Shown here one piece after another: positions 239 to 48,068 of a stretch of DNA of 64,000 bases; the first letter of the stretch is position 1; every line of letters begins with the position of its first letter. Source of the stretch: Lingula anatina (lineage: Eukaryota > Animalia > Brachiopoda). Below the pieces are notes generated by a model that saw only the letters and a program-made list of their open reading frames with translations, did no database searches and was not told the origin of the DNA. The stretch is from contig CM120640.1 of the NCBI GenBank assembly GCA_051362555.1, forward strand, positions 57,824,788-57,888,787, read 5' to 3'. The position numbers were made by a program, and so were the translations under genes.

Positions 239-351
239 AACTGTTTGGTTCTTTTTACCAATTGTGTTACAATGAACAAATCTTAAGAATTATTAATTAA
301 TAATATATCAACTTCAAAGAAAAGAAATACACAATTATCAAATGTTCCAAC

Positions 352-3300
352 CTGTAACTCCATGATACAGGACACCCCTACTATGGTGTCATGGATGAAC
401 TCTGTAAATGACTTAGTCCAATGGCCATCTGCTGTATTCTAGCAAAAAAAAAAAAAAAAATGCTCAGAGACATCTCAATATTCAGATTAAATAAAAACAA
501 GTTTTATAATTTTTTTCAGTCTGTTAATGTTTGAGATTTAAGGGAATTGTAACCCTTTATCATCATCCAGATACCAAAAATGAGTTTTTTCCTGCATCTA
601 ATTATTCAATAATGCATTTATCTTTGTGTTGATTTAAAACAATAACCCCCCCTCAAAAATATAAACATCAGTGTTTATATTTCTTGTTGCAATGTATAAG
701 CATAGGCAACTCAAAGCTTTTATCATCAATTTAATACCTTTCTATTTCGAAGTGAGATAGCAATCGGTATGGGGTAACTTCATCCTTGAACAAGATTTTA
801 TCACGAAAATTGGCAGGGTTGACCACAAGTGTATGAACTACAATCCTGTGCCATCTTGGTTTATATGTTTTTGTTATGGAGTTATGAGCCCCTTATTGCA
901 GATTTTCATTAACAAAGGCATTATTTTGGTTTATTGATGATAAAATCTGAACCAAGACTTCTAAAAAAAACACTGGCAGGGTTTTGAGTACTAAATGGTA
1001 TCATTAAATCCGCATTGAAATGGTGATCGTAAGTGCTCAGGTAAAGGAGAAATTTGAAAAACCAATTTTTCAGTTTTTACCCTAAAATTGCAATTATGAT
1101 GTCATCCCTAAAATGACATAATTATGACATTGTGTAAATGTTAATTAACTTAGTCACTGAACACTGAAGAATTATCTATTACCCAAAAGAATGTATATAA
1201 GGCAGTAAATAAGTAGTTTTGGGTGTGGGGTGACAACAATATCTTGAAATGGGTGTGATCCAATAAACGAAATATATAATAAGAGTTGGACAATTTTTCT
1301 TACTGGTTTGATCCCAAATAAAATGCACTCCAGGCACTGCTGAGGAATCTGAGTCAAAATGACATCACTCCTTAAATTTTCAGGCAATACATACTCATTG
1401 TTGCCAAAGTCGATGTAGTGGACCTAAAAGGAAAATATTGTATACGGTAATATGCCAAACAATTCGACCAAGATTAATTAATTAATTTCATGGAAATGTC
1501 AGTTTGGTCGAATTGATTAAAATACAGCAAATGGAAACCTTTGATATCGTCGGATTGTTAGGGGCATCTGCCAAAACGTCCATCTTTCCAGAAGTATTGC
1601 ATTTTACCGGAAGTGTTACGCAAGATAAGCCGCAATTTTCGCCTAACACGTGTTTCAGGCATTTTTTATCCTCCTTCTGAAATCTTATTTTGCTGTGTAC
1701 AATATGTACTAACATTACTTAACATTACAAAAGACGACAATTATAATTTCTAATTATATATTTCCCTCACATACGATCATTTCCATGATGCGCTTCACGT
1801 ACAAGTGGGACGAGTATTTCCCCGGAGACAGGTGTTGTAAACAAAGGCCAGTCACTTATATTTGAAACCGGTAGCTTTAGTGGACTTAAACTAGTTATTT
1901 GAATTTTAATATGACAACTGAAATCAACCGAATTGAATTTTTTTACCAGTCTGAGATCAGTTGTTTTCAACCCGGCTTGCTCAGCGTCGAGGCGTAGACG
2001 TACGTACTTCCAAAGAGAATTCAATCAACTGTATCAAAGAATACCAACTGGTACTCAAACGGAAATCAGTGTCACTTCAAATTACTTTTCAGTATTTTAT
2101 TTAAAAGCATGTCATATTAAAACATATTGAGAAAAGGCAAAATACGGAGCCTACCTGTGCCGATAGACATACAGTATCTTGCTGGCACTCTTCCGATTTT
2201 CTTACTTATATACTCTCGCTGTGCACAAACCGCGGTGCATATTGAAAACCCCACTGATACAACCCAAACGTAAAAAAATCATTTAATTGCCATAATTTCA
2301 AAAAACAGGTGCATTTATAATTTGACGTGAGAATTGAGCACATGCAGAAATAAGGGACTGGTCTTAACTGGTCTGCTCCAGAATAGCGCAAACCACATGT
2401 TAATGAAGACGGTCCCAATTTGGGAGAGGGGGGGTCACAGGAATGGGGTTCTTCGTGGTTTACGCTAAATATTATCAACATTTCATGCATCTGGGGAAAT
2501 AGAAAGTGACTCACAGGTAACGTAAATACCCAGTGGAACTCTCTATGAAGCTTCCATGGAGTTAAGGAAGACGTCATTTTTATTGTTGACATGTAGGTGA
2601 ACAGCTACACGTGCTCGTCAGATTTTGACAGCGCGTGGTATTTGGCGCCAAGAAGTCTGGGTCGATCTGATCTTTCGGTCGATTGTAGTAAATGTAAGAT
2701 CTTGCGGTGTTGACTTCAAGAACGTTTCCCCATCTGAATATATATTCCAATCGAACTTGAAAATAAATTGCTTATTCCTCCCAAACTTTTTATTGCTAGC
2801 AAACGCTATATATGGTCTATATGAAGGTGTTTACGACGTATTCTACCCACTGTCGATATTTGGTTTCATCCATAATAGACCTTTTTTTTAACCCCCCCCC
2901 CCCCCTCCCCAGTTACGGGCGTGATGAATCAGTCAGCGAGGGCAAGTCTGCTTAATTAGCACAATTTGTATGTCTATAAGCACTATTATTGTCATCGGGG
3001 ACAAAGGAAATGACAGGTACGTCATGTTTCCAGATTAGATCTTCAATTAATTGTTTCTTCCTCATTGACGAGAGCTTTTGAAAGGACAACAATTGACAAA
3101 GGGCCGAGGCACGCAGCATTTATTTCACTGGCTTGAAAATTTACCGAGTCTTGCCGACGACGTGGTCGAACAATCGGAACAAGAAAAAAATTCTGTCGCA
3201 TGATTTTGACGTATGGACTAAATGTTTGAGCCTAGAAAAATTAATTTTATAAAATAATTTTTGTGGTCGGATTGACTGGGCCCGTCGAAATGCTTGGCTC

Positions 3301-5856
3301 ATTACCGTAACCATCATTTTCTGTAACAGTCACTGTGGCAGTAACAAAGAATAAATTGTACATTTGCTGCAATATAAGCCATATGTTGTCAGCTCCATTA
3401 ATAAGATTAACAGGCTAAATTAGATTGGTGCTGTCTATATGTTAAGTTTCTATTTTTGTTTCTGCAATCATTATTTTATAGACAATCACTAATGATGAAA
3501 ACATTAACACCTACAGTTCTTTGCACTGATATTCCACTATATTTTGGAAGATTCCAAACAAACCAACTACTCCAATATAAGGAGCAGCTTTTGTACCCCC
3601 CAATGGTCAACACACTCACCAATATTCCCTGCTCATTTATCTCCAGTACCCTCCCTCTGTACCAGTGCATATCCTGGCTGAACCTGGCCACACAGGCTTG
3701 ATCAACTGCCCACTGGACATTCAAGTCTGGCTCAGTGTTCTGGTAATGGTGTTGTAAGACATCCATCAGTTGTGCCAAGGTGCTGTCATCTAAAACAACA
3801 AATAAATATTTTTTTAATATATATATATATATTGCATTTTTTGAAGGAGCAAAGGTTTGTATATTCTGTTTTCCAAAAGAGGCCTTGTACATGAAGTTAC
3901 ACAGCTATAGCCTACGCCATTTTATTCCACTGGTAAAAAAATGCAAGAGTGCTCCAGTATCTGAAATGTTACGGTAATGTGCCAAGCATTTCGACGGGCC
4001 CAGTCAATCCGACCAAAAAAATTATATTATAAAATTAATTTTTCAGGGCTCAAACATTTAGTCCATACGTCTAAATCATGCGACAGAATTTTTTTCTTGT
4101 TCCGATTGTTCGACCACATCGTCGGCAAGACTCGGTAAATTTTCAAGCCAGTGAAATAGATGCTGCATGTCTCGGCCCTTTGTCAATTGTTGTCCTATCA
4201 ATAGCTTTTGTCAACGAGGAAGAAACAATTAACTGAAGATCTAATCTGCAAGCGAGACGTACCTGTCATTTCCTTTGTCCCCAATGACTATAATAGAACT
4301 TATAGACATACAATTTGTGCTAATTTAGCAGACTTGCCCTCGCTGACTGATTCGTCACGCCCGTAACTGAGGGGGGGGGGGGGGGGTCTGTTCTGGATGA
4401 AACCAAATGTCGACAGTGGGTGGGATATGTAGTAAACTTCTTCATATAGACCATACATAGAGTATGCTAGCAATAACAATTTTGGGAAGAATAAGGAATT
4501 GGTTTTCAAGTTTGATTGAAATATATATGCAGGGGAAACGTTCTTGAAGTCAATGCTGCGAGATCCTACATTTACTACAGTTGACTGAAAGATCGGTGAG
4601 ATCGACCGCCTAGACTTCTTGGCGCCAAATACCACGCGCTGTCAAAATCTGACGAACGCGTGTAGCTATTCACCGACATGGATAACCGTTTAGTCAACAA
4701 TAAAAATGACGTCTTCCTTGTTAGAAAAAAACAGTAACTTATATGGCGGTGAAAAGCGGAGCTTCACAGAGAGTTCCACTGGGTTTTTACGTTACTTGTG
4801 AGTCATTTTTTATTTCCCCAGATGCATGAAACGTTGATATCATTTAGCGCAATCCGTGAAGAACTCAATTCCTGTGACCCCCCTCCCCCACAATGGGACC
4901 GTCTTCATTAACATGTGGTTTGCGCTAGGTATGCTGGAGAGACCAGATACAGTCTCTCATTTCTGCGTTTACTCAATTCTCACGTCAAATTATAAATGCT
5001 TGTTTTGTGTAAATTATGGTAATTAAATGCTTAATTTACGTTTGGGTTGTATCAGTGGGGTTTTCAATATGCACCGTGGCTTGTGCACAGCGAGTGTAGG
5101 CCTATATATGTAAGAAAATCGGAAGAGTGCCAACAAGATATGTCTATCGGCACAGGTAGGCTCCGTAGATTGCCTTTTCTGAATATGTTTTAATATGACA
5201 TGATTTTTAAATTAAATACTGAAAAGTAATTTAAAGTAACACAGAATTCCGTTTGAGTATCACTTGGTATTCTTTGATAGGGGTGATTGAATTTTCTTCG
5301 GAAATGCGTACGTTTACGCCGAGCAAGCCTTGCGAGTTGAAAACAACTGATCTCAGACTGGTAAAAAATATATCTCAATTTGGTTGATTTCAGTCGACGT
5401 ATTAAAATTCAAATAGGGCGTATGTAGATCACATAACTGGTTTAAGTCCACTAAAGCTACCGGTTTCAAATATAAGTGACCGGGCACTGTTTACAACACC
5501 TGTCTCCGGGGGAAAAAGCGTCCCACTTGTGAAGCGCGTCATGAAAGTGATCGTCGGTGAGGGAAATAAATAGTTATGTTAGCACATATTGTACACAGCA
5601 AAATAAAATTCCTCAAGGAGGATAAAACGTGCTTGAAACACGTGTTAGGTGAAAATTGCGGCTTATCTTGCGTTACACTTCCGGTAAAATGCAATACTTC
5701 CGGTAAGATGGACGTTTTGGCAGATGCCCCTAACAATCCGACGATATCAAAGATTTCCATTGCTATATTTTAATCAATTCGACCAAACTGACATTTCCAT
5801 GAAATTAATTAATTAATCTTGGTCGAATTGTTTGGCATATTACCGTACTGCCTTTC

Positions 5857-5900
<44 letters not shown>

Positions 5901-7395
5901 CAATTTGATATCATGTACAAAAAAATTTTAATGAACTATATCATGTATCCATAATGTAGTGGCTATGTACATATGGGCATTTTTACAATCCTGGGCACTT
6001 TTCAGATTTTCCCACATATTGCTAATTAACAAATTACATACATATCATCAAATAATTCTTTTATCACTATGTTAGAGAATGGTGTAAGTGAAGATAAACA
6101 CTGAAAATAGAAACCAAATATCACCACTGAGTCCAAAGTTATGCTAAAGCAAAGCCTGAAAAATGACCAAAAAATTTTCCCGTTTTAGTCATATGAAATA
6201 AAAAGCAATCTGAAATAAATTAGAACAGTGTTTGACATGGCATTTTTTTGGATTATAAAACACTCAGTAGTATGGTGGAAGCAAAAAAGTTTAAATATTA
6301 ACAGGAGAGAGGTGTATCCTAGAAAAAAAAGTCTTTTAATGGCATGCTGGTATTTCCGTTAAACGAAATGTCCATTCCGAAACAAAAATAAATTACTTTC
6401 AGAAAACATGTCATAAAACATACAGTATAATTAACCATCCTAATCATTATTTGGATGTATTGGTATTGTTTGTATCAAATAATGAAATCTGCGCGATGAT
6501 TCTGGAGCTTGACATGGAGTGCAAAATAACCCTACCGTGTTTTTCCGTTAAATTTGTCCATTCCGAAACATTGGGTTTCTCTTACATAAAAAGAACATGT
6601 TGACACCTAGCCTGTAACAATATATATTTCTCTAAAGCCCAGGGCATGTGACATTTATTTTTATATAAGAAAACCCCAGTGCGCAGAAACCCATTTAACT
6701 GTGGCCTTTTTTGAGATGCTTGTTAAAAATTGTCCATTCCGAAACAAAGTACCTTTACATTGCCAATGTTATAAATAGGGAGAATTTTGTCTTTAATGAT
6801 GTATGTTTCACTTGACATGAGCAAATTACTGTTAGAGCATCATGCATATGACATAAAAATAATAGAAAAACATTTCTTCAATGGCATCTTTTAAAATTTC
6901 TATATATATCTTCAACAAAAAAAAATCATTTTTGCGAGTCAGCATCTTTTCTTTGGATCTACTAGAACTTCCATTGCATATTTTCCCAAAGTTCATGTAT
7001 TTCAAAGTTAAATTAACAATTAATTGAAAAGATTATATCAGTATAAATAGAAATATAGGCAATTTGGATGCTTTGTATTGGAAAGGACATTTTTTAACAC
7101 ATTGTCTAAAACACTTGTTTACTCTTTGGTCTGCTCATCTATTTATTATTCATGAGGAAGAGGATGATGAGAAGCACATCAAATTTATGTAGAATATAAT
7201 TTTGAATAATATAGCTTACTTGAAATATTGCTTACTTATGATGTACATAAAAGTATTTGAAAATAGTTATGAGGCTACACATATTAAAGTTGCGAGAGTC
7301 AGTTCACTGGCACGGTTTACAGAGGCACTTGCAGGCAGACACAGGTTATAATTAACTTCCTGTGATTATTTATAATATATACATACATTATGATA

Positions 7396-7487
<92 letters not shown>

Positions 7488-10400
7488 ATTTAAGCAATTT
7501 CGTAAATGTTAAATAAATGTCCATTCTGAAACACAGGACATGCCTAAAAGGACATATTTAAAAATGTAATTACTAAATTTAAACCTGACCTTGTCAAATA
7601 ATATTTTATACAGCTATAAGCTGTAACAAAAGGAAGTAGAATAGGGTATAATGGAGTGTAGAAGACTCTGTTTTATGTCATGATCAAATACTAATGGAGT
7701 AACATTTCAAAAAAGAATCAAAAACTATCCAAAATGACCAATTAATGTAATAAAAACAGTTCAGTTTTAATCTAGTTAACTCATATTTTGTCCAATGATT
7801 GCTGTACCTTATAAACCAACATACTATGAGATCTTAAGGCAATTTCATAAATGTTAAATTAATGTCCATTCCGAAACAAGGACATGTCTAAAAGGACATA
7901 TTTTTAAACATGTCTTTACTGTTGGTAAATCTGACATTGTCAAATTATATTTTATACAGCTATGAACTGTAACAAAAGAAACTGGAATAAGGTGTAATGG
8001 CGTAAAGAATTCCTGGAATATATCTCAGAATCAATATTTAATAAAATAAAATTCCAGTACCGAATTACTAGTACAGAATAGACAAAACAAGCACAAAATG
8101 TAATAAAAAGAATTCAATTTTAGTTCAGCTTCCACCTATTTTGCCCAGTTATTCATAGACTTATAAACTCAAATACTACAATAGACTTATAAACTCAAAT
8201 ACTTCAATAAAATAAAACAATATCATAAATGTTAAAAAAATGTCCTTTCCGAAACAGGGATGTTTCGGAAAGGACATTTATTTTAACATGACACTGCAAT
8301 TAGCACACATGTCCCTGCAAAATAATATTTTACACAATCATGAAGCATAACATAAAGAACTAATGCAAGGTAAAGTGAAGTACAGAATTCCTCAGAATAT
8401 CTCAGAATAAAAAACTTCATGGAGTCGCATTTAATACTGAAACAGGAAAATTACAAAATATCATTGATTCGTCAAATTTTGGATATTTTCTACCATTTTT
8501 TTTGCAAATATTTAAAAGAGCAATACTCTCTGAGTAAAACTAAGTGGTTTTTTGGAGATCAATGCCTTAAATTATCATAAAAGTCACACACTTCAAGGTT
8601 TAGCTTATGAAAATTAAAAAAATGATTTTCAAAATTCAAATAATCATATCTTTATACATACACAAGGTTTTATCTCGGGATTGTCATTTCTTATACCCTT
8701 CAGGTCTATACTTTCAAGAAAAGTACAAATATCAACACAATAATGACTTCTATTTTTGACCCTTGGTGGGAAAAAAAGGAGCCCAGGATTGTAAAAATGC
8801 CCATATCAATTCCAAAGTATTCAGTGGGATATGCTATTAAACAAGCTAGTTAAAACTTAAATTTAAAGAGATGACCTATTTTAGTTTAAATATCAAGAAA
8901 AAGTCTAGTGCATTGACTAAATGCGCACCAGCCCTATCATTAAACAGCTGCCTGCATATGACATTAAGAAGGAAAAGAAATGGATTGTCATACACACAAA
9001 AAATTTTGGAAGAGACCAAAATTATTACATATGTAATTTATCATTATCATAAGAAATTAAGGGAATGATATCATCTTGCACATTTCCAAATTTGCCCCTC
9101 ATTTTAAGTTATAGGTAACAGCAGGTTTAACCTAAAACAGACCTAGTGTATGGATTATAAAGTGTCAACAAGAACAAAACCATTGAAAAAGTAATCAAAA
9201 ATAAATATGGTATGATCTTATCATGCCCAGTTTCAAACCTGACTGCAGTTACAAATCTGGCTGCTGTGCCAAGACTATGCGGGTAATGTCTGTACATAAA
9301 AAACATCACAAATGACAAAAAAGTACCATCTATGTAGGAAAGCAGTTTATTAACACAAGAAGATAAGAATCAAATTGTAAGACAACTAGAAATACCTGTC
9401 AGTAAACAAAAACACAATACCTATGTACGATAGCAAGCTAGTAAAAGCATGTAGATATTAAACTCTGGGAGGAGTTTAAATTCAGAAGTACTGTCAGAGA
9501 TTTTACTTACCAAAAGAAGTGACATCTTGTCTATCAGCATGTTGCTGCATTTCACATATTCTCATCTGCCTCCATGCAGCGTAGTCAGGGTTGGGTACAC
9601 AGAGAGAACTGGGAATGGCAAGATCATAGTGACCATTATCCACCCTGCCGTCTGAGAGAAAGATCAGCTCCACAACATCTGCAGAGCCAGCACCATAGGT
9701 CCTAGTCAAAACTGGGGTGTGCAAGCCATTCATATATAGCACAGTTTGAATGTCATATATGTAGCAGACCACCTGGATTTCTACCTCGCCACCATATGAT
9801 CCTGGCTTGGCTAAGTTTTGTATATATTTCATTTTGTCATCTTCATAAATGATATCCTTGAAAACATCCCACTGCTCCTGCAAAGCCTGGATCACTGCAC
9901 TTCGCACAATAAGATGTTGGTTCTGATCCTGAAATATTCCCTGGGCAAAGGCTCGAAATAAGCAGTTACCATCTGCAATGATTTTATACCTTTTCATACC
10001 TATACTCTGTAAATATTTGTCTTGTACTTTCACTTCCAATGTTGACTCCTGTAGGATATAACCAAGTCTCCCTTCTGGGTCCTCATCTAAAGCAAAAGTA
10101 GAAAACACTTTAAAACTTTGATATGGGTAAAGTCTGCTGGCTACTCCTTTCCAAGTATTATTTTCTGTTTTCAAACTTAAAGGGATAATAACTCTTCGTA
10201 TGAAATCTGTATTTCACAATAAAAACATTGTGAGTGACTCATAAAAATATAATATATTCTGTTTTCCCACAAAAACGGCTGTTATAGCTATTATTCTGAT
10301 ATCTGAGCTTGTCTTTAGACCACGTGACCTCCATTGATGGCTATACTATGTTAAAATCTCTTAAGAGATTTTAACAAAAAACCAAACTTTTTAGAAAAAA

Positions 10401-13400
10401 ACCAGGGACTAACTTTGAATGTAAAAATGGATTCATTAACCATTGGTAAGTATGGGAAAATTGTTGTTTACTCCAGGAAAATTCATTTTTTGGCCAAAAC
10501 GAAGAGTTATTATCACTTTAACTACATTTTTTGTGGAGACCAACCATGACAGACCTACTGCAGCAGTGCTCCTTTCTCTGTGAACTCAATGGAAAAGATC
10601 AGCAGACAAACACCTTGTTGGAGCAGACCTTAGAATTATTTAAGTTTGGCACTAAGCGATCACTTGATCCTTGGTATAAGTAAATGTGTCAACTCAGAAG
10701 TATCTATTTGGGGACAATCTATACCACTGATTCAAATTGTTTTTGATTTGTGCTTTTCTAAAGCATCTTTCTACTTCACAGAATCTGGACCACTATTTAC
10801 ATAAATATTATTTATTTACTCGTAATGTGTACCTGATTTATACTCCTGAGCATATATAACCCCATCTATACCAACATACGTGGGAATGACTGTCAAGGTG
10901 CCTGGGTACGGTGGCAATTCAAATGGTGGGAATTGTGTGGGTGGTTGGGCCAATTCTTCTCTTTTTTTTCTTTTTTTTAGTAACAAGCTGTTGGGTGGGA
11001 GTTCAATTGGAAGGTCCACAGGTGAAAGAGATTCTTCGGTGTTTGACTCTGTAGCCACAGGCTCATTAGCCATGGTCTCTGACAACAGTGGTTCTTCAGT
11101 TAATGCTTCTGAATGCTGATCTTTGGTTGGTGCCACAGTTACTTCTGCGGCTAATGCTTGTGTGGGCAGGATGTCTGATTTGGTTGCATCAGAAAATGTA
11201 TTAGACTGTACAATTAATTGCCCCTGTTCTGAAGTTGCTATCCTTTCATTGTTTTCCTGTAATGATGCTGCTACTTGTGACCTGAAAACAGAACAATAAC
11301 AATATTAGGTGTAATGCATATTAATGTGCATGGATATGGCATTTCATTAATACTTTTCATGCAAATAGAATATGTAAAGTACAGCTATTTTTTTTCTCTC
11401 TCTCTCTTTAATGGCATTTGTTTATTTGCCTGACTGCTGTGTACCTCTTCCTGACTGGAATAGCTAAACCTTCTTCCACTAAAATTTTGCTGAAAGATCT
11501 GCATTCAGTTGTTGCTGGAGTCAAAGCATCTCCTTCCAGTGTTTCTATCATTATTAAGTCAATTGGCAGGGAACCATCAGTCAGTTCTCCCTGTGAAATA
11601 ATACAAAGAATGGTGATTTAAAAGTAACATCAAAGTCTGATATAAGGTCATTGTGCCTTGTGAATGCACTACTGTTGTAAAAACATATAATGTAGGGTTT
11701 TTTTAATAAATTGATATTTTTTAATAATTTCAATATTAAATGCTTTTAAAAACTTTTAAACAAAATGTATGCATTACAAAAACAAACCTTTCGTTTTTGT
11801 AATAAGTAATATGTCATAAACTTTTCATCCAAGTTAATGCTCTGACATATCAATTACAATTGCCAATCACAAATTTTAGGCTTATTTAGGTATAATGCAT
11901 CTGCAATTCCTCAAAATCATTCAATCATGCCTTAGTTAAGCCTTATAACACAGATATCACAATTCAGTATTCACCTTAGGTTCTATATTACACTCTGCAT
12001 CAGCAATGAGTTCTTTGAAATGCTCACATGCAGTCTTGGACCACCTTGTCCTATCCCCAGCAGCACAGATGTCTGTGAGGTGACAGCGAATGGCAAACAG
12101 ATTGTATTCTATGAATCTAGCCTCTAGGGGGCGCAACATCTCCATTTTAAGCTTTTCCTCAAAGCCAAAGTCAAGCATATGCACCTTCAGAAAATAAACA
12201 AGATAAGTAAATCTAGAGACAAGCAATGTTAAAGGCTACCAAAATCTAAACACTAGCATTCACATCATTCTGTTAAAATATCAAAAATAAGTACCTCTGT
12301 AAAGATACAAAAATGTTTTCTGTCACATTTCATATGCTGATGATTTTTAAACTATCACATACAACACAAGTAATATAAACAAAAATTTTATGTGCTGATG
12401 ATTTAACTATCACAAATAACAGAAGTAATATAAACATTTGTTCTTGCATTTTGTTACCTGGACAAAATCATTTGACAATATGCTCAGGACTTTGGCTCTG
12501 TACCAGCGGCCGTCAGTTGTACTCTTGGCAGCACAGACATCTTCTGGCTCTAATGTCAGCTGGACTGGTGAAGTTTTGGAAAATTGCTCATCTAACTCAT
12601 TCATCAACCTATCAGTAGTATACACATTTCATAAAATCAATGTTTGCCATTTAACAACACATCTTTTTAGTCTCATTTTATCAAGCTGAGTATCTCACCA
12701 GAAAAAAAATAATTTAAATAAAGATATTCATGGTGAATGCTTTTAGTAGGTACTCGTAAACTACATAACATAACAATGTGATCTACACTAATGCTGAGCC
12801 ACTCTCTGCATATTCAAACTATTGTTGCTTCTTAAATTCACTAATGACTACATTTCAAAATATCACTGAAATATATTGCACTTACTTGTTAAGATCAGTT
12901 TCCCCATCCACTGTTCTAACATATAACAGAGTTGGAGATTCAACATGGCTTACAATGATTGGGGTTCCAGGCACGTCTTTCAATTTCTTTGACTTCCTTA
13001 TTTTGACAGATTGTTCTTTGTTAGCAGTAGCAAATTTGCCAAGTTTCATTTTTTTCTCAGTGTTAATATCTCCAAACCAGTCACTATCTCTTTCTTTCTC
13101 TGGTATAGTAGAATGGCAAGGTTTTTTGTCTTTCTGAGATTCTGCTTGTCCTGCTGAAGCTACATTTACTTCTAGGTCAGTCACCCTACTGGTCACACTT
13201 GCTGGACTAGCTTGGACAACAGACTGAGGTCGATGCCAGCCTCCATGAATCTTTGCCATGTCCTCTTCAGACAACTCATCTGTTCTCAAATCACCCTGGG
13301 CAATCTGTGACACTACTGGATCACAAATACCAATTTTGACATCTTTGGCAATGTTTGCCACTTCCTGGTTTTCCAAACATATACCAGAATCCACCTGCAG

Positions 13401-16400
13401 TACAATATACTCGTTATTTAGATCTGTGTAGTTTTGATATTTATACTGATCACTTCTATGTCAGCAGATGATATACCCTTTCTGGTTCAGAATTTCATAA
13501 CAATTAATTTTTAAGTTTAGACGCCTTGCACAGTAGAACAGTATGGTTCATGTCACATTATAAAAACATAACAACTCACCAAATTCAGTGCATTAGGGTG
13601 AACCTGATTGTTCCCAGGTATCGATTCCAAATCTTCTGTTGCAGAACACTGATTTTTCCCGTAAGATATTAGGTTTGGCATAGCTAAGCTAGTTGGCTTG
13701 GAACTGGAACATAAATGAGTATACAGCCCTTTCACATTTCAAGATATGACATTGTACTGTACAGCATTTTAAACAAATAAAATAAATTTTTGGTAAATAA
13801 TGATAGACTTAGGTGTCAAAAAAATAAACCGTTTCACAAAAAATAACAACAATGCATGTAAGTAAGCATTTATTCCCAGAGCCTTGAAAATTGCAAACAA
13901 GAAGGATTAAAAAAAAACTTAAGGCTCTAAAACCCTTACCCAGGTCCTGTGCTGACAGCAAGTCCCTCATTCACCAAATATGCATTAAAGCAGACTTCAC
14001 CACTGTCAGTCACTGCACACAGCAACACTGACAAACATTGATCAAGAAACCCTAAAAAGCATAGTTACAAGTCTACAGTAAAAGTGAATGTATGTTTTAG
14101 AGATATTTCAAAATCAAAATACACCAAAAAGTGTACTTCAAAAAAGGGAGAGAAAACTTGCAAAGAAAATCAAACCATACCCTGTTTAAACAATGACCCA
14201 CATTTTAGCTCCTCTCCCTGTTCCACAATGTTCAAAGTAAACATGAAAATATTAAGTACTGCAAATTATATTTTGATCACAGGACAATTAAAGACATATA
14301 AATAATCTGAACAATTAGTTTATGGACCCTTTCATTAAATATCAACTAATTTATGAACTGTATAACCAACATACCACTTCCCATGCACTTAAAATTATCA
14401 ATTATTATGATTATTACCTTTGACTCTCAAAACTCTTTGCTGGAAGACATTCGTCTTGAACTGATCCACGACCTTAATAAAAATTGATTAAGAATTGGTT
14501 GCTTGTCAGGTACTTAGGTCAGATCACTTAATTGTTTAAACACCAAAGTTGGTGGAACATTAATCACATCAGTTCAGACACAATAAACACCAAAAACATT
14601 TGCAGAAAAATATATAAGCCATGCCCTGTTTCAGATGTTGTCTTAATTTCTCTGACTCATTGCTTTGACATTTATAAAAACTACACAATTTTCCTCAAAT
14701 GCACTCACATTACTTCAAATGTCCTTCAAATTAAATAAAAATACAGAATAACTGGAACATTATTTGATATACCTGTGGACTCCATCCCACCTCTACATCA
14801 ACAGGTTCAATATCAGCAAGACTACAGTGCAGTCCCTGGAATGAATCCATGTTTTTCCGTTAAGTTTCTTCTAACATGCACACACAGCTTCTCAAATCAA
14901 ATTAGTTCATTAATTATTCTGTCTAAAAAAACCACTACCAACAAACAACATATGGCAGATGTTACATGTGATAATGTAGCTTTCAACATGGTACCAAATG
15001 CCTAAGAAAATCCTACCTGAGCAGGAAGCACTAGATGCCTGTCCAAAATTTTCCTGAGCTTCAAGTGTGAGATGATTTCTGAGTTTCCAAAATCCACATA
15101 CTGTATCTCAACCATTCTCCTGCCAGGGAGACGGGTCACCTGGGCACGATACCACAGGTTGTCATGGTACTGGGCTACACACACCATGTCTGAATATGAA
15201 GGATGTTAGTACATGTATATTAGAGTGCATTTATTTGTATATAACCCCCTCCCCACTGTTTAAATGACCTGGTATGCCACTTCTACGAGGTGTCACCTGG
15301 ACATTAAGTCAGGAGTGTCAGGCCCGTAGCCAGGGGGGGTTCGGGGGGTGCAAAAGAACTGCCCTTTTTGCTGGGAAAAGGTCCACTCTGGATAAAATTT
15401 GATTTAGGTACAAGTAGGTTTTATGGAAAAAGGTCCACTTTTTCAGAAAACGAACCCCCCATTTGAAATTGCTGGCTACAGGCCTGAGTGTCCTGGAGGC
15501 AGTTCCACAAACCCTTGGCTAGACTACAGAACACTCTTGGATTGTTAGCTAAATGTTTCAAATATGTAGATAAATTTAAAATACTTAACCACAATGGCAT
15601 TCTCAAGCTAACATGGTTTTGTGAAAACTGACACTTGACAGTTAGTTGATAACACAGACCAAGTCTAGAACTGATGGCAGCTATGCATTTCATTTACCAA
15701 AATGACGTTTCACCTGCACAGACTTCATACTGTAGGTATCAGCTTCTCTGTAACCCATCAAACCTGCTAGGGCTATAAATGTGCCACTACCTACTACCTC
15801 ATTTTGGCAGTGCCAAATTGTTATAAAGGATTGTTCAGGTCAATAACATTTACCTTTTTGTGGACACAAAACAGCATACAGATCTTCAGTATTGTTGTAA
15901 ACAGTTTGGAGCTCTTCCATCATTTGTGAAAAGTATCTAGCCTCATCATTAGTCTGAAATTTGAATTTCAATTCTTAATGACATAAATTGCTTGCTAAGA
16001 GAAATGTGTGCAGGACATATATAAGACCATGTATGCTGTGTGGGATGGAAACAGTACCAATAAGAAAAAAAACAAGAAAAGAAGATGGAAGCTTTGATGT
16101 TCAATGAATGATTATGCTCACTTGGGTTTCTCACTGGGAAAAACATGGAGGAATAGAGTGAGAAACGAGAAGCTGTTAGAGATCTTATTAGGGATGGCAA
16201 GGTTTGTTGAGATAGCAAGAGTGGAGGCTGTGCTGGTATGGATACATCAGAAGGATGGAAGAAATGTATGTAAGGCATACAATGCTGGCAATGAAATCAG
16301 TAGGAAAGAGAAATGTGGGAGGCTGAGGAAAAAGTTTATGGATGCTAAAGAGGACTGCAGGAGGTAGGAGGTGGACAAAGCACAGGTGTAGGTGTTCATT

Positions 16401-19400
16401 CCACTGTGGCAACCCCTCAGAAGGGCGATTTCAAGAAGGGCAGGTCTGATTAGGTTGAGGATTTCCTGTCAGATCAAAAATGCATGTTCTGGTGTTACAA
16501 TAACATCTTTTTATCTTAAGGCTAAATATCTCATTTTTTAATGTCTTTAAAATATCTCACTGTAAAATTAATGCAACTAACACTATTTCCAACTATTCAC
16601 TTACTTGTTGTACGTAAAAGCTACTGGGACTGTCAACGTGACTTATCACCACATCTAATATGTCATCTATTTCCGGCAGCTCTGGATGGAGGTATCTTCT
16701 GGCAGGTAGTAGCATTGGGCCTGCAATTTACACAACTTTTAAGGTCTCAGAATTGCCAGAATATCTGGCTAAATACCAGGGAATGAATTCTCAAAATGGA
16801 GATGGATGTTCGATTTTTCACTTGCCATCAAAAGGTTAAGTCCATAAAATTAAATTCGTGAAGTCACATCAATTGTTTTTCAAACTTATAGGTTTAAAGA
16901 AATAGAGACCAGATGAGTAATTAAATTTTCTCCAGGCATCTCACGTTTTTGCCTGATGTTCCCAGAGTGTTCCTTAAAAAGGTACATCTTTCAACTTATT
17001 CTCTTAAAATACGTAAATATTCACTGTAAATTTTTCTTAATATGTGAAATAAATTTAAGCAAAAATTCAAGTCAAGCTACTACTAGAAACAGGGGCGGAT
17101 CCAGAGATATTTTCTGACAGTCTTCCAAATTATCTTTGTTGATCTATTCTCTATTTTTGACCGTCTTCCGACTGAAAAAATTAGATACTCGTCAATGTAA
17201 ACTTTAAAATCTGACCGTCTGCCTAACTATTTTCCATATTTTTCATCATATCAATGCATGCATTAGTTAATAAAAATTTAGACATGTTACAACCACACTG
17301 TCCAAATAACAATAAAGCACAGATGGAGTTATATTACCAAGGTTCATCATCCATCTACATGGTAAGGCTGATACCAATAACGAAAATAAGCATGTGTATC
17401 AGAGCCAAAGACATATGGAAAGTAACTGTTCCATGATATACATTTATCTTTTGGGATGTTAGGAAGGCAGTAATAGTGATGACAACCTGGCAAAGGGAAT
17501 TAATCCAATTTGCTGAATCACTATATAAAAACCCTTCTTGTCACTATATTTAATAAATCCAATGGTAAGTGTGTGTAATGAAAAAATGACACAGAATAAA
17601 TTGTCAGTGAAAACATTTATTTACAGACAGGTTATGACTTACATTTTAATAAAGTTAACACTTTGCATGTCAAAAAGTTCCACTTAATGCATTTTACCCA
17701 TCTGCTAAAATGCTCTTTTCCTTACTACTTAAATGTTTTAGCTTTTCATATATAAACAAGTATAATCTTTATCCTAATTCAAAAGCACCAGCACCATACC
17801 CACAATTGTTTCCATTGGATTCATTAAAGCAATGACATCAAATCTTAAAATAAGTACAGATTTGTTTAATTTTCCTAACAATACAATCATGTTTCATATT
17901 TGAGCTGAATATAACAAAAAAAAAAAAAACATGCTGTTATATACGTCTTTATATGGGTTCCAATCTCAGATGAAATTTTTATTAAACTAAAATGTAACTG
18001 TATCACTTCCAGTAAGACTTAATTTTTCCGAGCAGCAGCTCTTCCATTGCCACCATTTTCTTTGGCCTTTTTCTTACCAGAAGTAACATGAGTGGACTCT
18101 GGGGTGGCTAGACAGGCCAGTTCTAGGAATACAAGAGAATCCCTCATAGAAACAGGGCGGTCATCCTGGATTCCATCATTGGGAGGCTTACTCAGGTCCA
18201 CATGCATCACATTGTTTACATTTTTAACAACCTGGAAAAAGCCCCAAAGATATTTTTCTAAGACAAAATTGAATGTTGATTCAATAAAAAAAAATGTTGG
18301 ATAGTAACCAAATTCTAGATTTTAACAGTTTGAAGCATGTGATCCAGATCTACTATTTAATGTGAACTATAAAAATATTATTTTGTCAATACATGCATTA
18401 GGCAAATTCATGTGCCACTTACACTCATGAGCATGGGTTTATCCTCTGTCATCTTTGCAAATGATTGGATTGCTTCAAGGGACCACTGTGGGTTGGTCTG
18501 CAAGTAATTAATGAATCATCTATCTAAAACCCATCAACACTGCCTTAGGGTGCATTCCCACAGATTTAGATTGATCCAGAGATTTAGAGTTAGATCGACC
18601 TAACTCCCTGGGGGTTCATGCTAAATTGCAGTCAGCCGAGCGCGCAACAAAGTTAATTACCCCCTTACAGCTTTTAGTAGGTGGGACAGACGCTTTAGCT
18701 GGCTAAGCTGACAGTTATCTAGTGAGACTCCCCACAGGGATAGATTGATCTAAAATCCATGGGAATGGGGTCTTAGTGAATGTCAAACAAACGTTTAATC
18801 ATAAAGCCACATACACAAAAGTTCCACACACGTAGCATAAGAATGGATAATTAAATATTGCTCATTTTTAAAAAATGGGCATGTTCTTAAATGTACCTTG
18901 TCAGCAGGAACCAAGTCCAAAAGGGCACACTGCACAGCTAACTCTGGGACACGCAAAAACCTGTTCTGCATTGCACGCACTCTGTAATATATAAATGGCA
19001 ACTTACCAACTACCTACACCATCATGATCAACATATTTCAATAGTAAACAAACAGCAATCAGTCGTATCCATCCCATTACAATGTTCAAAAATACACCAA
19101 TAGGAATGGTGATTGCTAAGTATGTTTTCCCTTTACGCAAAGAAACTGTAATGAAAACCAATCTATGCAATGAAACAGATTACTGCAATACAGATGAATT
19201 AACAAACACACACAATGATACAAAGCAAAACACTTACTTTTCTAAGGGCACAATCTCAGTGTTGCCATAGTCTATATAATATACTTCTATCTTTGGCTTG
19301 CTTGATGTGGTGGTGTCACTATCCCACAAAATATCTTTCACCCTGGCCCTATACCAGCAGTTATCCAAAGCATACTGACAAAGGACTAGATCATCTGTGA

Positions 19401-22400
19401 ATAAAACATAGAATGGTAAAAAGACAACTTCAAACTGATACGATATAGGGTAAAGTTCTATTCAGGCAGTATTTCCCTTAGTTTGCTTGGTTATTTACAA
19501 GATACAGATACAGTTCTGAAAACTAGAAAAAATGTTGCCTTCAATCCTAACTGATCAATATAATAAATACAACAGAATACAAGATACTATTCAGAATGCA
19601 ATTTCACATAAACAAGACTTTGATAACAAGACATTCTACACAGATTCAGAGTCAAACATGCCAAACTGTTTCTTCCAAGAATCTTACCTTTGCATGCAGA
19701 AGACGGTCTTTCTGCCTTATCTCCATTACACCATTTGTTCATATTCCTGGCTAAGGATTTGAGCCTCTCTACATCTGCTACTCTCTGGATTATGAAGTGA
19801 CTAGGGTTTTTTATATGGGTGACATACACCAACTCTTGTCGTACTGAAATCAAAACTCAGCAATATTATCATATGCAGTTTATTAAAATAGTGTAAGCTT
19901 TCTATTACTGATTCGCTGACTAAATTTCATAAAGCAAACTTATCATTATCATTACTATATATTTTTCAAATTTTACACTAAAAAACTACAAACATATTTT
20001 AAAATGATAAAAATATGTGAACAAAATAAGAATAGTCTTGAAAAGTCTGACTACATGAGATTAAGTAAAACATCAAAACCCACATGTTTAGCCCCCCCCC
20101 CCCCCCCTCCCCAGTGTGCTGGTATTGCACTTCCTTAAAGCTAATATTAAGCACAAGAGAGGATCATGCTTACCAAAGTTGACCTTTGTCCTCTGAGCCA
20201 TCTTTTTTCTATGTGCAATGGTGTCAGTGGCAGAGACACTGGTGCCAGTCCCAGAACTGTGCTGGCTGTGTTGAGAGGTAGACAAGCTACCATCAGTAGA
20301 CAAGCTCTCTTCTATCTCTTCTGCAATGTGGGGGAAATACCTTATATCTTTTTATTGTATAATTTCGTAACTGTTTGAAAATTAAAGTATTTACTTTAAA
20401 ACAAATTTTTTTAGTCTGAGCCAAAACCTACTCAGCTTACTGGACATTCTGGCCACCAGCTTTTTAAAATCTTCTGGCCTGCATGATATTTATCATCTTG
20501 ATTAAGATAAAACAAGATGTAAAAGTAAACTAAAATTATATATATGTCTCAAAAACAATCTTATTTAACTAAAACCTGCCTTTGAAAATGATCCTCTGCA
20601 TTTCCTTTTAGATGAACAAGTGAGTCTTTACCCTGCTTGGATTCTCAATTTTTCGAAAGTGCTTTTGGAAACCATTACTTTAACTAAGAAGAGGTTATAA
20701 AATCACACAGCTCTACTTTCAAGTTTAAACTGGTTTTCTGTCCTTTACAAACTTGGGAGTTTCAATCATTGGTTTACTGGCAGAGTTTATAAAGAAAGCA
20801 GCCTTCTTATCTTTTAAGAAGGGGGTTTTGATATACTTTTATAATGTCACAGATAATAACTTAATACATAATTAGGTGCACACTGTAATTCTTGACAGGT
20901 GCACTGGTGGGCCTGAAGATGAAACTGCCTTACTTTTATTATAAATGGAAGGCAATGCCTACTGATAGTATCACACCCACTTTATGCATACAGAGGTTTT
21001 GATTTTTTAGTAATTTTTATTAAAATAAATACTTTTTATCATTTTAGGTGGGTAAAACAACATTAAATTTAAAGGTTTACAGAAATTTATGTGAAGAAAG
21101 ATCAGATTCTGGAAAACTTTGGCCCAGTTATGTAGTTATCTCCAGGCCAGTGGGTAACATTGCAGTCTGAATTTAGTGAAGTTGAACACTGTTTACATAC
21201 CCTCAATGATGACATCATCACTGATTTCTGAGGTCCTATCATCTCCTTTATCTACAATCTCACTAAGAGGCACCAGCTCAAACCTAAAGAAATAATGTGT
21301 CACAAAAATGTGAAAACATTAAAAAAATATTGTTCCAAAGTTTGCTTACAGATCTAGTTCTCAGAACATACTGGATATGAACTACTTGCAATTTTTGTGT
21401 GTCCCTGATGCTGTTTTATCAAAATTGACCCCCATTTGATACACATTTATCTCAGTCCTGAGTGTAACATTATCTACTTGTTGTTTTGTAAATGTCAGTA
21501 AAGGTCAGAAAGTTCCATTAGTGACATTCTTTAAATGACCCTGGTCACCTACAGTTTTCACATAAGGTCTGTCATTGATTTTTTCTGAGCATGTGTTAAC
21601 AACAGAGGACTACAAAGATTTGTATCCATTCTTTTGCAAGTTGGTTGTTATTGCACTGTTATTGCACATCTCAATTAGTAGTGTGCCTTGTGAAGGGGAT
21701 TTAGTTGTATTAACAGAATCCACACAAAATCGCCAAGAAAATTAAGTCCAGAGCGTGTGGAAAAGTTAATGTTACTTTCCAAAGAGGGGTCAAAACTGGG
21801 AGAGTTTAATTTTGGTGGTGCCCTTGCAAAATTTAAAGCTGACAAAAACAGAAGGAAGTAGAAAGTAAACTGATAATAAATAACACTTGTGACTTTTGTT
21901 GTTTTTATTGCTTTTTATATTTATTTCAATGTTATTTCAAACTTATAAATTCTTGACCCCCATTTTTAAAAAGTGGGGGTCAAAATGACCCTTATGTGCA
22001 AAATCTAGTGGAAAACCTTAAATACATAGGTTAACATGTGTACATGATTTGATTATCACGTAAATGCTGACTCACCTATTGATTGGGGTGGATTGGATCT
22101 TGCCATACTCTGGTATCATGTTTTTGAAGTCTTCTGTGAACTGAACTCTGCAATAGGTTTAGCACTGATAAGATTACACAAACAAGCAAAAAAACTGACT
22201 TCTTCAAACCAAAAGCACTGTCCAAAATTTAAAAAGATCTATGGTTTTACAAATGCAGTAAACTGTCGACATTTTTTGTAATTTTCAGTTCATGTAAAAC
22301 AAAAAGTCTGTTCCATGAGATTTGCTCAGGTAAACATATTAAGTTATAAGGTTACAAGTTATGCAGAGACTACTTCCACATACCATCAAACTGTGTTTTC

Positions 22401-25400
22401 ACTGTTAAGAGAGTTTTAATCAACCAAAAATCAGGTAATGTAAAACTCCATAAACTAATTCACAGTTTTCTTTCAACTTCATAAAAGATTAAAATTATAA
22501 CAGAAATATGTCTGGTACCTCAACTGAACAGTTTTCAAAAAGTGTACTCACTTCACCCCAAGCTGCTCCTCCTCAACCACAGGAACACAGTGACAAGGGA
22601 AAGTCTCTATAGACTGCAGCTTACTCAAAATCTCATTGGCATTCAGTATCAGTTGATTGTTGTTATTCATCACCTTTCTGGCATCTTTACAAATATATGA
22701 ACATACAGTTTTGTTAATTTCTGTAGTTCTGGGTTAATATTTCTTAAAGACATCTTTTTGAGAGGAACTTTGAGAACAACCTCCTTTCCCAACCTGTTTT
22801 ACATTTAACACAAAACATAAAAGTCTTTGATAAATTTTGAAATACTTTTAATACCTTTTAAAAGAAACTCTATTCTCTTTGACTCCTCAACAATGTTTAG
22901 TTTCTGAAAAGGAAACAGGTATTTCAAATTCAGGTAAAGTATAAAATCCCTGACATAAATGTCACTTCCCCATGTAAGATGTAATATCTGCAATAATTGA
23001 GGACACAAAATTTCAATTCCAGACAAATAGTTAAAACATCTTAACATTATTACATACTGAACTTGTTAATTAAAATTTAGCAGTATGTGTGGAATAGAAA
23101 AAAGAACACACCATATCTTCCATTGGCATTATCTGTTCAGCGCATGCTGTTTCTATTTCTGCTGTTAACTCTATCTCCCTGAAATTAAACATTTTGGGTG
23201 GTTTTTAACTTCTTATACAAATGTCAAATTTCATGAACTGAAAGGTTTATAAAAGAATTCATCTTTCCTGCAAATTAATTTAATATGTTCAGACTTAGAT
23301 TATGAATGGACATACAAACAATAAAAAAACTAACAACCACATTGAAACAAGGCAGCAAAGCTGTCAAATGTACAGACAAAAAACAGAAAAAAAAAGATGC
23401 AAAATAGGTCATTATGTCAATTTTGATGCAATAATAAATGCTTATAATAGCACAGTCAGTCAACACTGATTTTTAATCATGCACAACAGGTAACATGGTC
23501 AATAACAGGAGCAGATTCAGAGATATTTTCTGACAGTATTCCAAAGTATCTTTGTTGATCCATCCTCCATTTTGATAGTCTTCCAACAGAAACCCGTTAA
23601 TATAAACTGTAAAATCTGACTGTCTTCCAGGAGACCCAGAAGATGGTCTTAATCCACCCTTTCAATAAGATTACAATGTCAGGACCATGAGAGTTAAAAT
23701 TCACATGATGAAAATCCCTATATATGAAAAATGATGACAGTGCATAAAATAATATTACATCGTGTTTAAAGACATAAATACCAATACAGCTGCTTATGTG
23801 GAAATACTGAAAATGTGCACAGCCTCAGGTGGATGGAAGTTAAAAATCACATCTTAAAAATGCCAGTGTTGGAGAAAAAATTAAATAGAAACAACAAAAA
23901 TATAATTCTAATGAAGCTGTTATTCACTGCTTTTTTATTATGGACACTTTGTTATCTAGCAGAGAGCTTAACAGGGAAATATCAACAAGTGTGCTTTATG
24001 AAATTTCAATTAATGGCTACTTAATTAGGTAAATGAGTTTATAGCACTGAAATTAGCCTTGTGAATACCCAAGGGGAATTAACAGACTGACCACACAAAT
24101 TTGTCTATCAAAGGTCTTCAGGCCCATAAGTCACACCTTAAGAAAAGCAGAAAACAATAATGCACAAAAACAGGAGACTGCCCAATTCTGATGCAATAAT
24201 ACATTATGTTTAACTGCACAGTCAACATAAAATTTTAATTATGCACAACAGGTAACGCTGATGAAAGTAAAAGCATAAGGCTCCAGGCCCATCAGAGTTC
24301 AAGTTTTCAATTAGAAAGTGCCAGAATGAGAAAAATGAAAATTTCACAAAAAATGCATAAATTTAATAAAAATGATTACCCAATTGACCTGGCTTTCTAA
24401 TTTCAACTGCATGCCAATCCTAAAAATCGTACTTATAAGTTAAATATAATAATAAGTAACACAGTTTTCTTTTCATAATGTTTGCAGTAGCAGTGCAAAA
24501 AGATTATTGTTAATTTTGATGTAACATTACATAATAAACTAGAGGATCAGAGAGGCGATAGCGCCTCCGAATATTGTACCACCAGCTGGAGCAAGCGCAT
24601 TCGTATAGACCCCCACATACACAAAATAAGGGTCACAGCCACCAGTCTTCTGCTTGACAAGCTGTAAAAATGCAATCAACAAGAATTTTCAAAATATGCA
24701 AAAAATATATATGCCTAAAAATGGTACAATCAAAGTTAAGTTCATCGTAAGGTAGGTCAAAAGTCAATTTCAAGGTCACAGCAAATTGCCAGTATATGAC
24801 TTCCTATTCAACTTCAATAGTAACTATGGACCTATCTCTGCCAGTTTTGGAGATAAAAGGGAAGCAAAATTTGCAAAGTTCAGTTCATGGTGAAAAGTAG
24901 GTCAAAGGTCAATTTCAAGGTCACATTTAGATTGCCAGTATATGACTTCATATTCAACTTCAATAGTAACTATGGACCTATCTCTGCCAGTTTTGGAGAT
25001 AAAAGGGAACCAAAATTTGCAAAGTTCAGTTCATGGTGAAAAGTAGGTCAAAGGTCAATTTCAAGGTCACATTTAGATTGCCAATATATGACTTCCTATT
25101 CAAGTTCAATAGTAACTATGGACCTATCTCTGCCAGTTTTGGAGATAAAAGGGAAGCAAAATTTGCAAAGTTCAGTTCATGGTGAAAAGTAGGTCAAAGG
25201 TCAATTTCAAGGTCACATTTAGATTGCCAATATATGACTTCCTATTCAAGTTCAATAGTAACTATGGACCTATCTCTGCCAGTTTTGGAGATAAAAGGGA
25301 AGCAAAATTTGCAAAGTTCAGTTCATGGTGAAAAGTAGGTCAAAGGTCAATTCAAGGTCACAGTAAGATTGTCAGTATATGACTTCCTATTCAACTTCAA

Positions 25401-31400: not shown

Positions 31401-31957
31401 CAGAGTGAACCTGTTCAAAACATTTGTCAGTGAGAGCATCCAGATAAAATAAATTATCATAAAACACATCAGTGGTTTTAATCACAATAAGTTACCAAGT
31501 GTATGTGTGAGCATCACAACAAAAAATTTAACTTCTGGACGATTGTTATCCCCTTGGAGCAATTCAAATCAAATTATAAAGAACACACATCTGCTTAATT
31601 CTTTTGCTTTAAAATCATCAGCTTTAAAAAAACAGCGCAAAGTGAAACAGCATGTGATACTTCTGTTCTCCATTATATTTTTAATCATTTACAATGTATT
31701 AAATTAATAATAAAATTCAACAAATACTAAGAAACTAACATTAATTTTATATTTCAGATAACATACCCTATCAAAGCATATCCCACACATGGTTACATCA
31801 CACTTGAGACAACAGCATGTAGCTGGATTAAAATTACACTCTTTGCAAGGAACTTTTGTTTCGCAGTCTTCTGACTCCTCCAGGCTGCTTTTCTTCTTTC
31901 TTGGCAACATTCCAGCTGGTGTAAAGTTAAGGACGCTGCTGGAAAAGTTGTAAAATG

Positions 31958-32049
<92 letters not shown>

Positions 32050-38759: not shown

Positions 38760-39459
38760 GCTGTTGTCAGCTAGCAAACCTGGCTGTCATTTTCCTTATG
38801 AGTGGCATTATACCTGAGAATATAGACAAACATGAGATCTGAGTTTCTTAGTTGAGACACACATTTTTACAAAAAATAACCTTAACATGTTATGATTACA
38901 TTTTTTTATAAATGATAGGGGAGGAATTTACTAACTGATGCTAGCAGCAAGATGAAGTACAGTAGCAGAAACTTGAGAAAAATAGAAAAAGAATTTGCAA
39001 AACACTGTCATAAAATATCTTTCTTTTTTGTGAAAAATGCACAAGACATATAGATTATGACATTTATTATCTATAAACCTTCCTAGTTAAACCTCTGGAA
39101 CCCACAAATGTGTCCTCTGATAATAACCGATGACCATCAGGCAAATTTGGAAATTTTACCGATTTCCTTAGATTTTCGCGTGTATGAGATTTTTTAACAT
39201 TGATCTGTGTGACATCTACATAAGACATAGGTGGATCAATCTGAGTTTTTGTAAATCATACACAGGGCCTGTATCAATATCACTTCGACGATTCTTTCTA
39301 GATAGCTTCTGCTTGGGCGGTAAGACATCTTAACTGTGTGGTTGCATGATACCGCTCAAAAGGAATCATAAGTAACCGAATGGTGCTATGCCATTGCGTT
39401 AAACATAAAAAAAGTTCAATCATGTATGCTGATGATAGCTTTGATTGTTAATATACTTA

Positions 39460-42216: not shown

Positions 42217-46444
<4,228 letters not shown>

Positions 46445-47400: not shown

Positions 47401-48068
47401 TTGCTACTGATAAGGTCACTGTTGCTGCATGTAAAATGCACAAGGTTTTTATTTTTATTGTGAAGTTCCTGCATCTGGTGAAAACATTATAAATGCAAGT
47501 GTCAGGTAAAAAATACAGTAGAATAGTACGATTCTACATGTACAAGATGGTACTCCATGTACATCTGCCACAAAAAAAAAATGTCTGGAGATGAACAAAT
47601 ATGGAAAGCAACATGTGCATATTGTGGTCATACTGCATAGATTTACATCAGAGCATTTTTGCATAAATAAACCTAAAAATACCAGTGATGGGGTAGTGGC
47701 GAAAAAACAGTGGTTGGAATGATTAAAATATTGCTGGTTCTGCACTTATGAACACTGGTAATGTATGCAGTCAAAGTCATCATGTCTTTCAATGTTGTGT
47801 TTTGAACTTGAAATGATAATTTTGATGTCCTTTTTGAAGATATTTATTTGGCAGTTATCAGTAATATGCTAATCTGAGTCATACATATTTTGGCAACATG
47901 CATATTTTGACCAGGCATGTGAGTGTGAGAGATAGGTAAGCCTGTGAAAAATTCATATCTATGTATCCTTCGCATGTATGAGTTTTTGGTTCAAAAATTT
48001 TTAGATGTTTTGAACTCTGTCTTGTGACTTAGATATATGGGATTATTCTGTTTATTTTAGATACCAAA

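Follow-up and report, generated by a model that had tools for sequence, protein, structure and literature searches.

The RNF17/Qin gene of the brachiopod Lingula anatina contains an exon that encodes an OTU domain, placed in frame within the fourth of the protein's five Tudor stretches. This OTU exon is real and ancient, and it has been kept across two phyla; the RING + OTU + Tudor protein that carries it is a conserved, lineage-restricted variant of RNF17, present in RefSeq, GenBank and UniRef. In the reading that we favor as the probable one, the OTU occupies the Tudor 4 loop that links strand 2 to helix A and is a routinely included, putative deubiquitinase (DUB) acting on proteins held by the Tudor domain. 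All coordinates refer to the 64,000-nucleotide stretch of L. anatina DNA that was analyzed (the window).

The portion of RNF17/Qin inside the window lies at 349..34333 on the minus strand, as defined by the match to the RefSeq protein XP_013416573.1 of L. anatina (P0002), in which the OTU exon is already included; Tudor 5 falls outside it, past the start of the window. The same match assigns the DNA to a Lingula-type brachiopod and speaks against a mollusc as its source. The first three coding exons (32398..34333, minus strand, approximate limits from tblastn) encode the RING finger. The exon upstream of the OTU (10833..11281, minus strand) encodes a linker and strands 1-2 of the extended Tudor 4 and ends in a phase-1 donor. 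The downstream exon (3620..3789, minus strand) opens with a phase-1 acceptor and supplies helix A and the Tudor 4 barrel with most of its aromatic-cage residues, and the one that follows (1304..1423, minus strand, 3' end approximate) encodes the end of the barrel and the start of the C-terminal SN-like part. A domain scan of P0002 recovers five Tudor stretches, a B-box (E 3e-11) and a RING that at E 5e-4 is just under the Pfam cut-off; in the Owenia and Lamellibrachia proteins the RING is above it. A first-pass annotation had placed the OTU in RNF17 as a coding exon, and the match to XP_013416573.1 and the domain scan bear this out, the chain being RING, B-box, OTU and five Tudors. Orthology with named RNF17 proteins is supported by a Tudor 3+4 tree in which the host protein falls with RNF17, a tree made by a quick method from 34 of 44 rows, with 10 dropped in which Tudor 3 and Tudor 4 were indistinguishable.

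The introns and surroundings of RNF17 have several features of their own. A pair of 1.9-kb inverted repeats (1443-3311 and 3968-5847, 84% identity) flanks the 170-nt Tudor 4 exon 3789-3620, and the two could form a stem that promotes RNA editing, skipping or back-splicing at this exon. At 24731-26581 and 28761-30023, RNF17 introns contain tandem arrays whose units measure 146 and 160 nt, and many diverged RNA reads map to short intronic repeats at about 15350-15490, 17090-17220 and 18560-18770. Immediately upstream of RNF17 and in its orientation, an unbroken ORF of 780 aa at 36444-38786 (minus) encodes a tubulin-tyrosine-ligase domain (E 5e-82). The plus strand has coiled-coil-protein exons at 48014-50964 and the beginning of a further gene at 59974-60258; these may be DRC2/CCDC65 and RAD1, which they resemble.

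The OTU exon itself spans 9511..10086 on the minus strand (576 nt, 192 codons, phase 1 at both ends), limits set by Pfam, XP_013416573.1 and homologous splice sites. An ORF scan of the window places it within a stop-to-stop ORF of 236 aa (minus strand, 10213-9503) that matches the Pfam OTU family PF02338 with E 1.4e-12, above the curated cut-off, and has both the Cys box and the His box, in agreement with the complete catalytic set noted in the first-pass annotation. The phase-1 splice signals predicted there also hold: the donor reads TTTG|GTAAGT with the intron beginning at 9510, and the flanking exons are in phase 1 on both sides, TCAG| ending the one at 10833 and |ATGAC following the acceptor at 3789. 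The acceptor of the OTU exon had to be moved. The earlier choices, 10164 and 10206, gave exons of 654 or 696 nt; the true 5' boundary is 10086. Phase-1 AGs number at least 14 between 10300 and 9990, and of these 10086 has the best pyrimidine tract (15/20, compared with 10 for 10206 and 11 for 10164). In a tblastn comparison XP_013416573.1 is identical to the window over the 192 residues of the OTU exon (100%, 10087-9512), and its joins fall at 10086 and 9511. The insert of the Owenia protein opens with the same linker peptide as the Lingula exon bounded at 10086, and in four contigs (L001, L002, L005 and L025) a phase-1 acceptor stands at the corresponding base. Acceptors 10164 and 10206 were both rejected on the pyrimidine tracts, the RefSeq join and the homologous acceptors; 10206 lies within a multi-copy element, and 10164 is 13 nt outside it. 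The element is MITE-like, with TIRs and TTAA ends, and occupies 10177-10521 (345 nt) in the intron that precedes the OTU exon. Further copies are found in the window at 44302-44667 (89%) and 42748-43067 (74%), and the family is plentiful in poly(A) RNA, attracting hundreds to thousands of RNA reads from diverged copies.

The best PDB sequence match of the domain is OTUD1 (4bop, E 1.3e-13). The catalytic Cys codon (C1451 of P0002; 9962..9964, minus strand) and the catalytic His codon (H1562 of P0002; 9629..9631, minus strand) align to the OTUD1 Cys and His boxes and are invariant in alignment A2. Among the RNF17-OTU sequences that cover each position, Cys is retained in 17/18 and His in 17/18. 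One member of the RNF17-OTU clade, P0209, retains the outline of the exon but has lost both residues, and P0185, its sister, is divergent as well.

The insert occurs at the same site in Lingula (P0002), in the annelids Owenia fusiformis (P0001, 43% identity) and Lamellibrachia satsuma (P0003), and in P0164, and in all four it starts with the same linker peptide and ends just before Tudor 4 helix A. In P0003, residues ~1575-2530 in the C-terminal part of Tudor 4 form a long tandem repeat of a 10-residue unit, which is probably a gene-model artefact. A search with the RNF17 N-terminus found an OTU in 3 of the 120 matches listed, the best 120 of 344, and a search for longer fused relatives (proteins up to 2000 aa) found only Owenia and P0164. 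A comparison of the site in 34 proteins gave 3 with the insert, 27 in which strand 2 leads directly to helix A, and 4 that carry no information on the site, having matched a different Tudor repeat. The 27 OTU-less rows include 11 named molluscs, the nemertean Tubulanus, deuterostomes, arthropods and Acropora; like all the named proteins compared they are gene predictions, and they may hide an unannotated exon. It had been anticipated that OTU-containing RNF17 might already be annotated: this is so for a brachiopod and two annelids, and for none of the molluscs examined, the group that had been named.

Among 1.84 billion representatives, a search picked out a tight cluster of homologous ORFs, mostly exon-sized. 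Eighteen were aligned, and in all 14 that reach the 3' end (14/14) there is a Gly at the position of the window's G|GT, after which the sequences diverge, as expected from read-through at a conserved phase-1 donor. A phase-1 donor is present in L001 and L030, in both of which the Tudor 4 exons follow; in L002, L005 and L025 further introns split the OTU. The proteins P0165 and P0224 are translations of L001 and L002 and hence not independent of those contigs. In L001 a stop codon precedes the acceptor, which excludes an upstream start there. Over 191 codons the window and L001 are 49/67/27% identical at the three codon positions, with third positions saturated, a pattern that indicates constraint at the protein level.

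AlphaFold models of the OTU-Tudor 4 unit reached pLDDT 92.2 and pTM 0.84 for Lingula and 91.7 and 0.85 for Owenia, with agreeing secondary structure; strands 1-2 of the OTU-less rows are wrongly placed in alignment A3 and presumably in A4, and the models rest there mostly on OTU-bearing rows. The Lingula model aligns with the TDRD1 extended Tudor (4b9w) over residues 3-390 (Z 21.3, rmsd 2.2, 182 of 191 aligned) and with OTUD1 (4bop) over residues 44-196 (Z 20.6, rmsd 2.4, 144 aligned). Both the alignment and the model put the OTU between strand 2 and helix A, confirming the site that the first-pass annotation gave as lying between the N-terminal strands and the helix of extended Tudor 4. The annotation had further suggested that splicing could switch the Tudor 4 fold. 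Since the TDRD1 alignment spans model residues 3-390, strands 1-2 meet up with the C-terminal part on the far side of the insert, and a fold switch is unsupported: Tudor 4 is predicted to fold intact around the OTU in Lingula. The high pTM for two domains of similar size suggests, at the level of the models, that OTU and Tudor 4 are held in a fixed arrangement. The cage positions of P0002 carry aromatics and an Asn (F1638, Y1645, Y1661, F1664 and N1666, to which we assume the cage pattern applies), so that the Tudor 4 binding cage is apparently intact.

We propose that the OTU, predicted to pack against Tudor 4, would be held beside its cage. Tudor 4 would dock clients, probably piRNA factors bearing dimethyl-arginine, and the OTU would strip ubiquitin from the docked clients or from nearby granule proteins, RNF17 included, thereby counteracting or editing the marks that the RING, or some other ligase, had placed. 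The parts of this proposal differ in strength. It is quite probable that the OTU domain cleaves ubiquitin, and a single RNF17 chain likely both adds and removes it. That the substrates are Tudor 4-docked clients or germ-granule neighbors (PIWI proteins, Vasa, RNF17), with the OTU opposing or editing ligase marks on them, we rate at slightly below an even chance. According to the available text of one study of fly Qin, eTud4 alone among the Qin Tudors bound a methylated ligand, and did so weakly, while eTud3-4 bound none of the peptides from Aub, Piwi or Vasa; the study argues for a nuclease role (10.1101/2021.10.25.465661). The lack of peptide binding and the nuclease argument weaken the docking step, Lingula Tudor 4 being equated with fly eTud4 by its order in the chain. 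Other points count against the favored reading: P0209 has lost Cys and His, the molluscs, the nemertean and all outgroups examined manage without the domain, and the Lingula RING, a putative ligase, is just below cut-off.

The first-pass annotation had presented the OTU as an alternatively spliced switch, and the most serious rival to our reading is of this kind: a regulated cassette exon would give OTU-plus and OTU-minus RNF17, and splicing would tune the DUB by tissue or stage with the Tudor fold unchanged. The phase 1/1 symmetry of the exon allows for this, and skipping would restore the ancestral Tudor 4 join; however, phase symmetry is required for the survival of any exon insertion. In the databases Lingula, Owenia and Lamellibrachia each have a cluster with one member, all with the OTU, the RefSeq protein has no isoform label, and no second RNF17 protein of the three species is among the matches listed (120 of 344). 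The extra introns that split the OTU in L002, L005 and L025 also argue against a cassette. The RNA data point both ways. Four of nine same-species runs (X1, X4, X7 and X9) were mapped to 7600-20000, and all four (4/4) cover the OTU exon, at a depth of 1-4x; in X1 and X4 the coverage is exclusively in the RNF17 sense orientation. The OTU-exon bin has depths of 1.2, 2.0, 4.3 and 2.4 in X1, X4, X7 and X9, respectively, and the upstream exon bin 7.8, 0.6, 2.5 and 1.8. The low OTU depth in X1 beside the upstream exon could be a hint of skipping; coverage in X1 is uneven, other exon bins being near zero as well, and in X4, X7 and X9 the OTU depth is at least that of the neighboring exon bins. RNF17 expression is low, and intron 13703-13940 is spanned by 10 X1 reads and 3 X7 reads. 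Neither the inclusion nor the skip junction of the OTU exon is among the joints listed (15 of 55), in which repeat reads dominate, at an exon depth of 1-4x. We consider a regulated cassette unlikely, and it is quite probable that OTU inclusion is the normal form of RNF17.

Less likely still is that the OTU has been kept mainly as a ubiquitin-binding module or structural brace of Tudor 4, or that what it cleaves is not ubiquitin chains on piRNA factors but something else. The high pTM, which suggests a rigid two-domain unit, would suit this reading, as would the conservation of the insert's N-terminal linker beyond the catalytic core and the persistence of the domain in P0209 without its Cys and His. 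The retention of Cys and of His in 17 of 18 sequences, across saturated divergence, speaks instead for catalysis.

We see little room for an alternative last exon, in which read-through of the 9510 donor to an in-frame TAA would end the transcript near the AATAAA at 9351 and yield an RNF17 with the OTU at its end and without Tudors 4-5. The TAA lies 6 nt beyond the donor and the poly(A) signal 155 nt further, together outlining a putative intronic 3' end (9346..9505, minus strand), and in X4 the depth in bin 9256-9669 equals that inside the OTU exon. Against this, the homologous ORFs conserve the donor Gly and not the position of the stop, and four full proteins run on into Tudor 4. The idea that gene prediction wrongly attached a separate nested gene, or a recent remnant of a transposon, to RNF17 is largely refuted and very improbable: the domain does have a sister-group signal with mobile-element-type OTUs and a MITE adjoining its exon, but insertion point and splice phases are identical in two phyla, the RNF17 OTUs form a clade of their own (99/97), and L001 has no upstream start, with a stop preceding the acceptor.

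That the RNF17 OTUs are a single clade implies one insertion, an ancient event at or before the annelid-brachiopod split. Its source is harder to name. The first-pass annotation called the module OTUD1-like. OTUD1 is its best PDB match in sequence and in fold; the trees prefer a sister group of mobile-element-type OTUs and do not reject OTUD1. In three trees the RNF17-OTU clade is sister to the mobile-element type (95/85; 88/82 on core columns; 91/85), with support of 88-95 bootstrap and 82-85 SH-aLRT on hand-picked subsets of 46, 46 and 40 rows. The grouping with transposon-encoded OTUs that had been raised appears in these trees as a sister relationship, and not as nesting inside them. A forced OTUD1 grouping is not rejected (p-AU 0.233); the groups for these later trees were named after viewing a quick first tree of 144 of 156 domains, which settled on no sister group, and the AU test thus lacks full independence. 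Over the core, the RNF17 OTU is 28.8% identical to OTUD1 and 31.3% to the mobile-element-type group. The sister group includes a reverse-transcriptase-linked OTU (P0202), its one member with a tested mobile-element domain; the others look, by eye, to be Helitron- or virus-borne. Beside the OTU exon, the ORF list, of which 10 ORFs went through a Pfam scan, has none of at least 80 aa resembling a transposase, Rep/helicase or reverse transcriptase. A viral fold search gave generic OTU matches only, the best being baculovirus Vp80 (24%), and a search of the ESM Atlas gave no usable match. A mobile element as the source has close to an even chance in our estimate, and an OTUD1-like host gene is a tenable, somewhat less probable one. 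As the first-pass annotation had observed, the C-terminal helix of OTUD1, which we take to be its ubiquitin-interacting motif, is absent: the exon stops at the point at which OTUD1-like rows enter that helix.

Three further OTU proteins came up in these comparisons. P0257 of Ptychodera flava joins an OTUD1-like domain without the catalytic Cys to a death effector domain. An intronless ORF of 1349 aa at L003:8502-12551 has an OTUD1-like domain first and a long low-complexity tail after it. L004:708-3931 lies on a gene-dense contig, virus-like by eye, whose ORFs include an OTU, an ankyrin-like type and an F-box plus ubiquitin-conjugating-like type, and its OTU falls in the mobile-element-type clade.

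A20/TNFAIP3, an immune-signaling protein, combines an OTU deubiquitinase and a ubiquitin-ligase module in one chain. Its ligase is of the zinc-finger type and its OTU is distant from the Lingula model (Z 9.9, rmsd 8.5), whereas Lingula RNF17 has a RING and would act in the piRNA pathway, with ubiquitin editing there putative. With OTUD1 the RNF17 OTU shares the N-terminal QDxYL helix and the C-terminal YxxW helix; it differs in its separate clade, in the missing helix that we presume to bind ubiquitin, and in being fused into RNF17 rather than free-standing. OTUs borne by viruses and by transposons such as Helitrons, Ginger1 and non-LTR elements (those of Ginger1 and Helitrons are reported in the available text of PMC2836005) share its D-x-G-H-Y/F-D His-box context, whereas the RNF17 OTU is sister to them, not nested, and is a single host exon under long-term constraint. 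Otu, OTUD4 and ALG13 likewise have OTU and Tudor in one chain, and a germline role is given for fly Otu in the available text of PMC12263153 and PMC12147562. In these proteins, however, the OTU precedes a short Tudor and there is no RING, while in RNF17 it interrupts an extended Tudor, and the RNF17 OTU falls outside their clade (99/94). Mouse RNF17/TDRD4 and Drosophila Qin/Kumo have in common with Lingula RNF17 the RING, the B-box and five Tudors; the OTU of ~190 aa inside extended Tudor 4 is found in Lingula, and none of the 27 orthologue rows mapped as OTU-less has it. In the available text of PMC4511215, RNF17/Qin is a piRNA ping-pong factor with a ligase-type RING and five Tudors that binds MIWI in mouse.

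We did not find a RING + OTU + Tudor RNF17 described in the literature searched, although subscription journals and the supplement of PMC12147562 may describe one. The RING is the only extra domain of TDRD4/Qin in the table of PMC12147562 as available, and PMC11114477 makes no mention of Qin, RNF17 or OTU.

Presence or absence of the OTU bears on spiralian relationships, which according to the available text of two 2026 papers are nearly unresolvable (PMC13271739, PMC13674499), and the insert is possibly a spiralian character of value; loss in molluscs and nemerteans explains the pattern equally well. A fuller scenario seems to us improbable as a whole: capture of a mobile-element DUB into a methyl-arginine-reading Tudor 4 before the split, giving an A20-like writer-eraser that would control the turnover of PIWI or Vasa in germ granules, as a rare change uniting Annelida and Brachiopoda and excluding Mollusca and Nemertea. 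The RNF17 variant adds a candidate to the proteins that combine a ligase with a DUB, and indicates that the loop from strand 2 to helix A of an extended Tudor can house a complete enzyme. The part played by ubiquitin in the piRNA pathway and the ligase-type end of Qin are unsettled, and a putative DUB hard-wired into RNF17 offers a direct handle on both.
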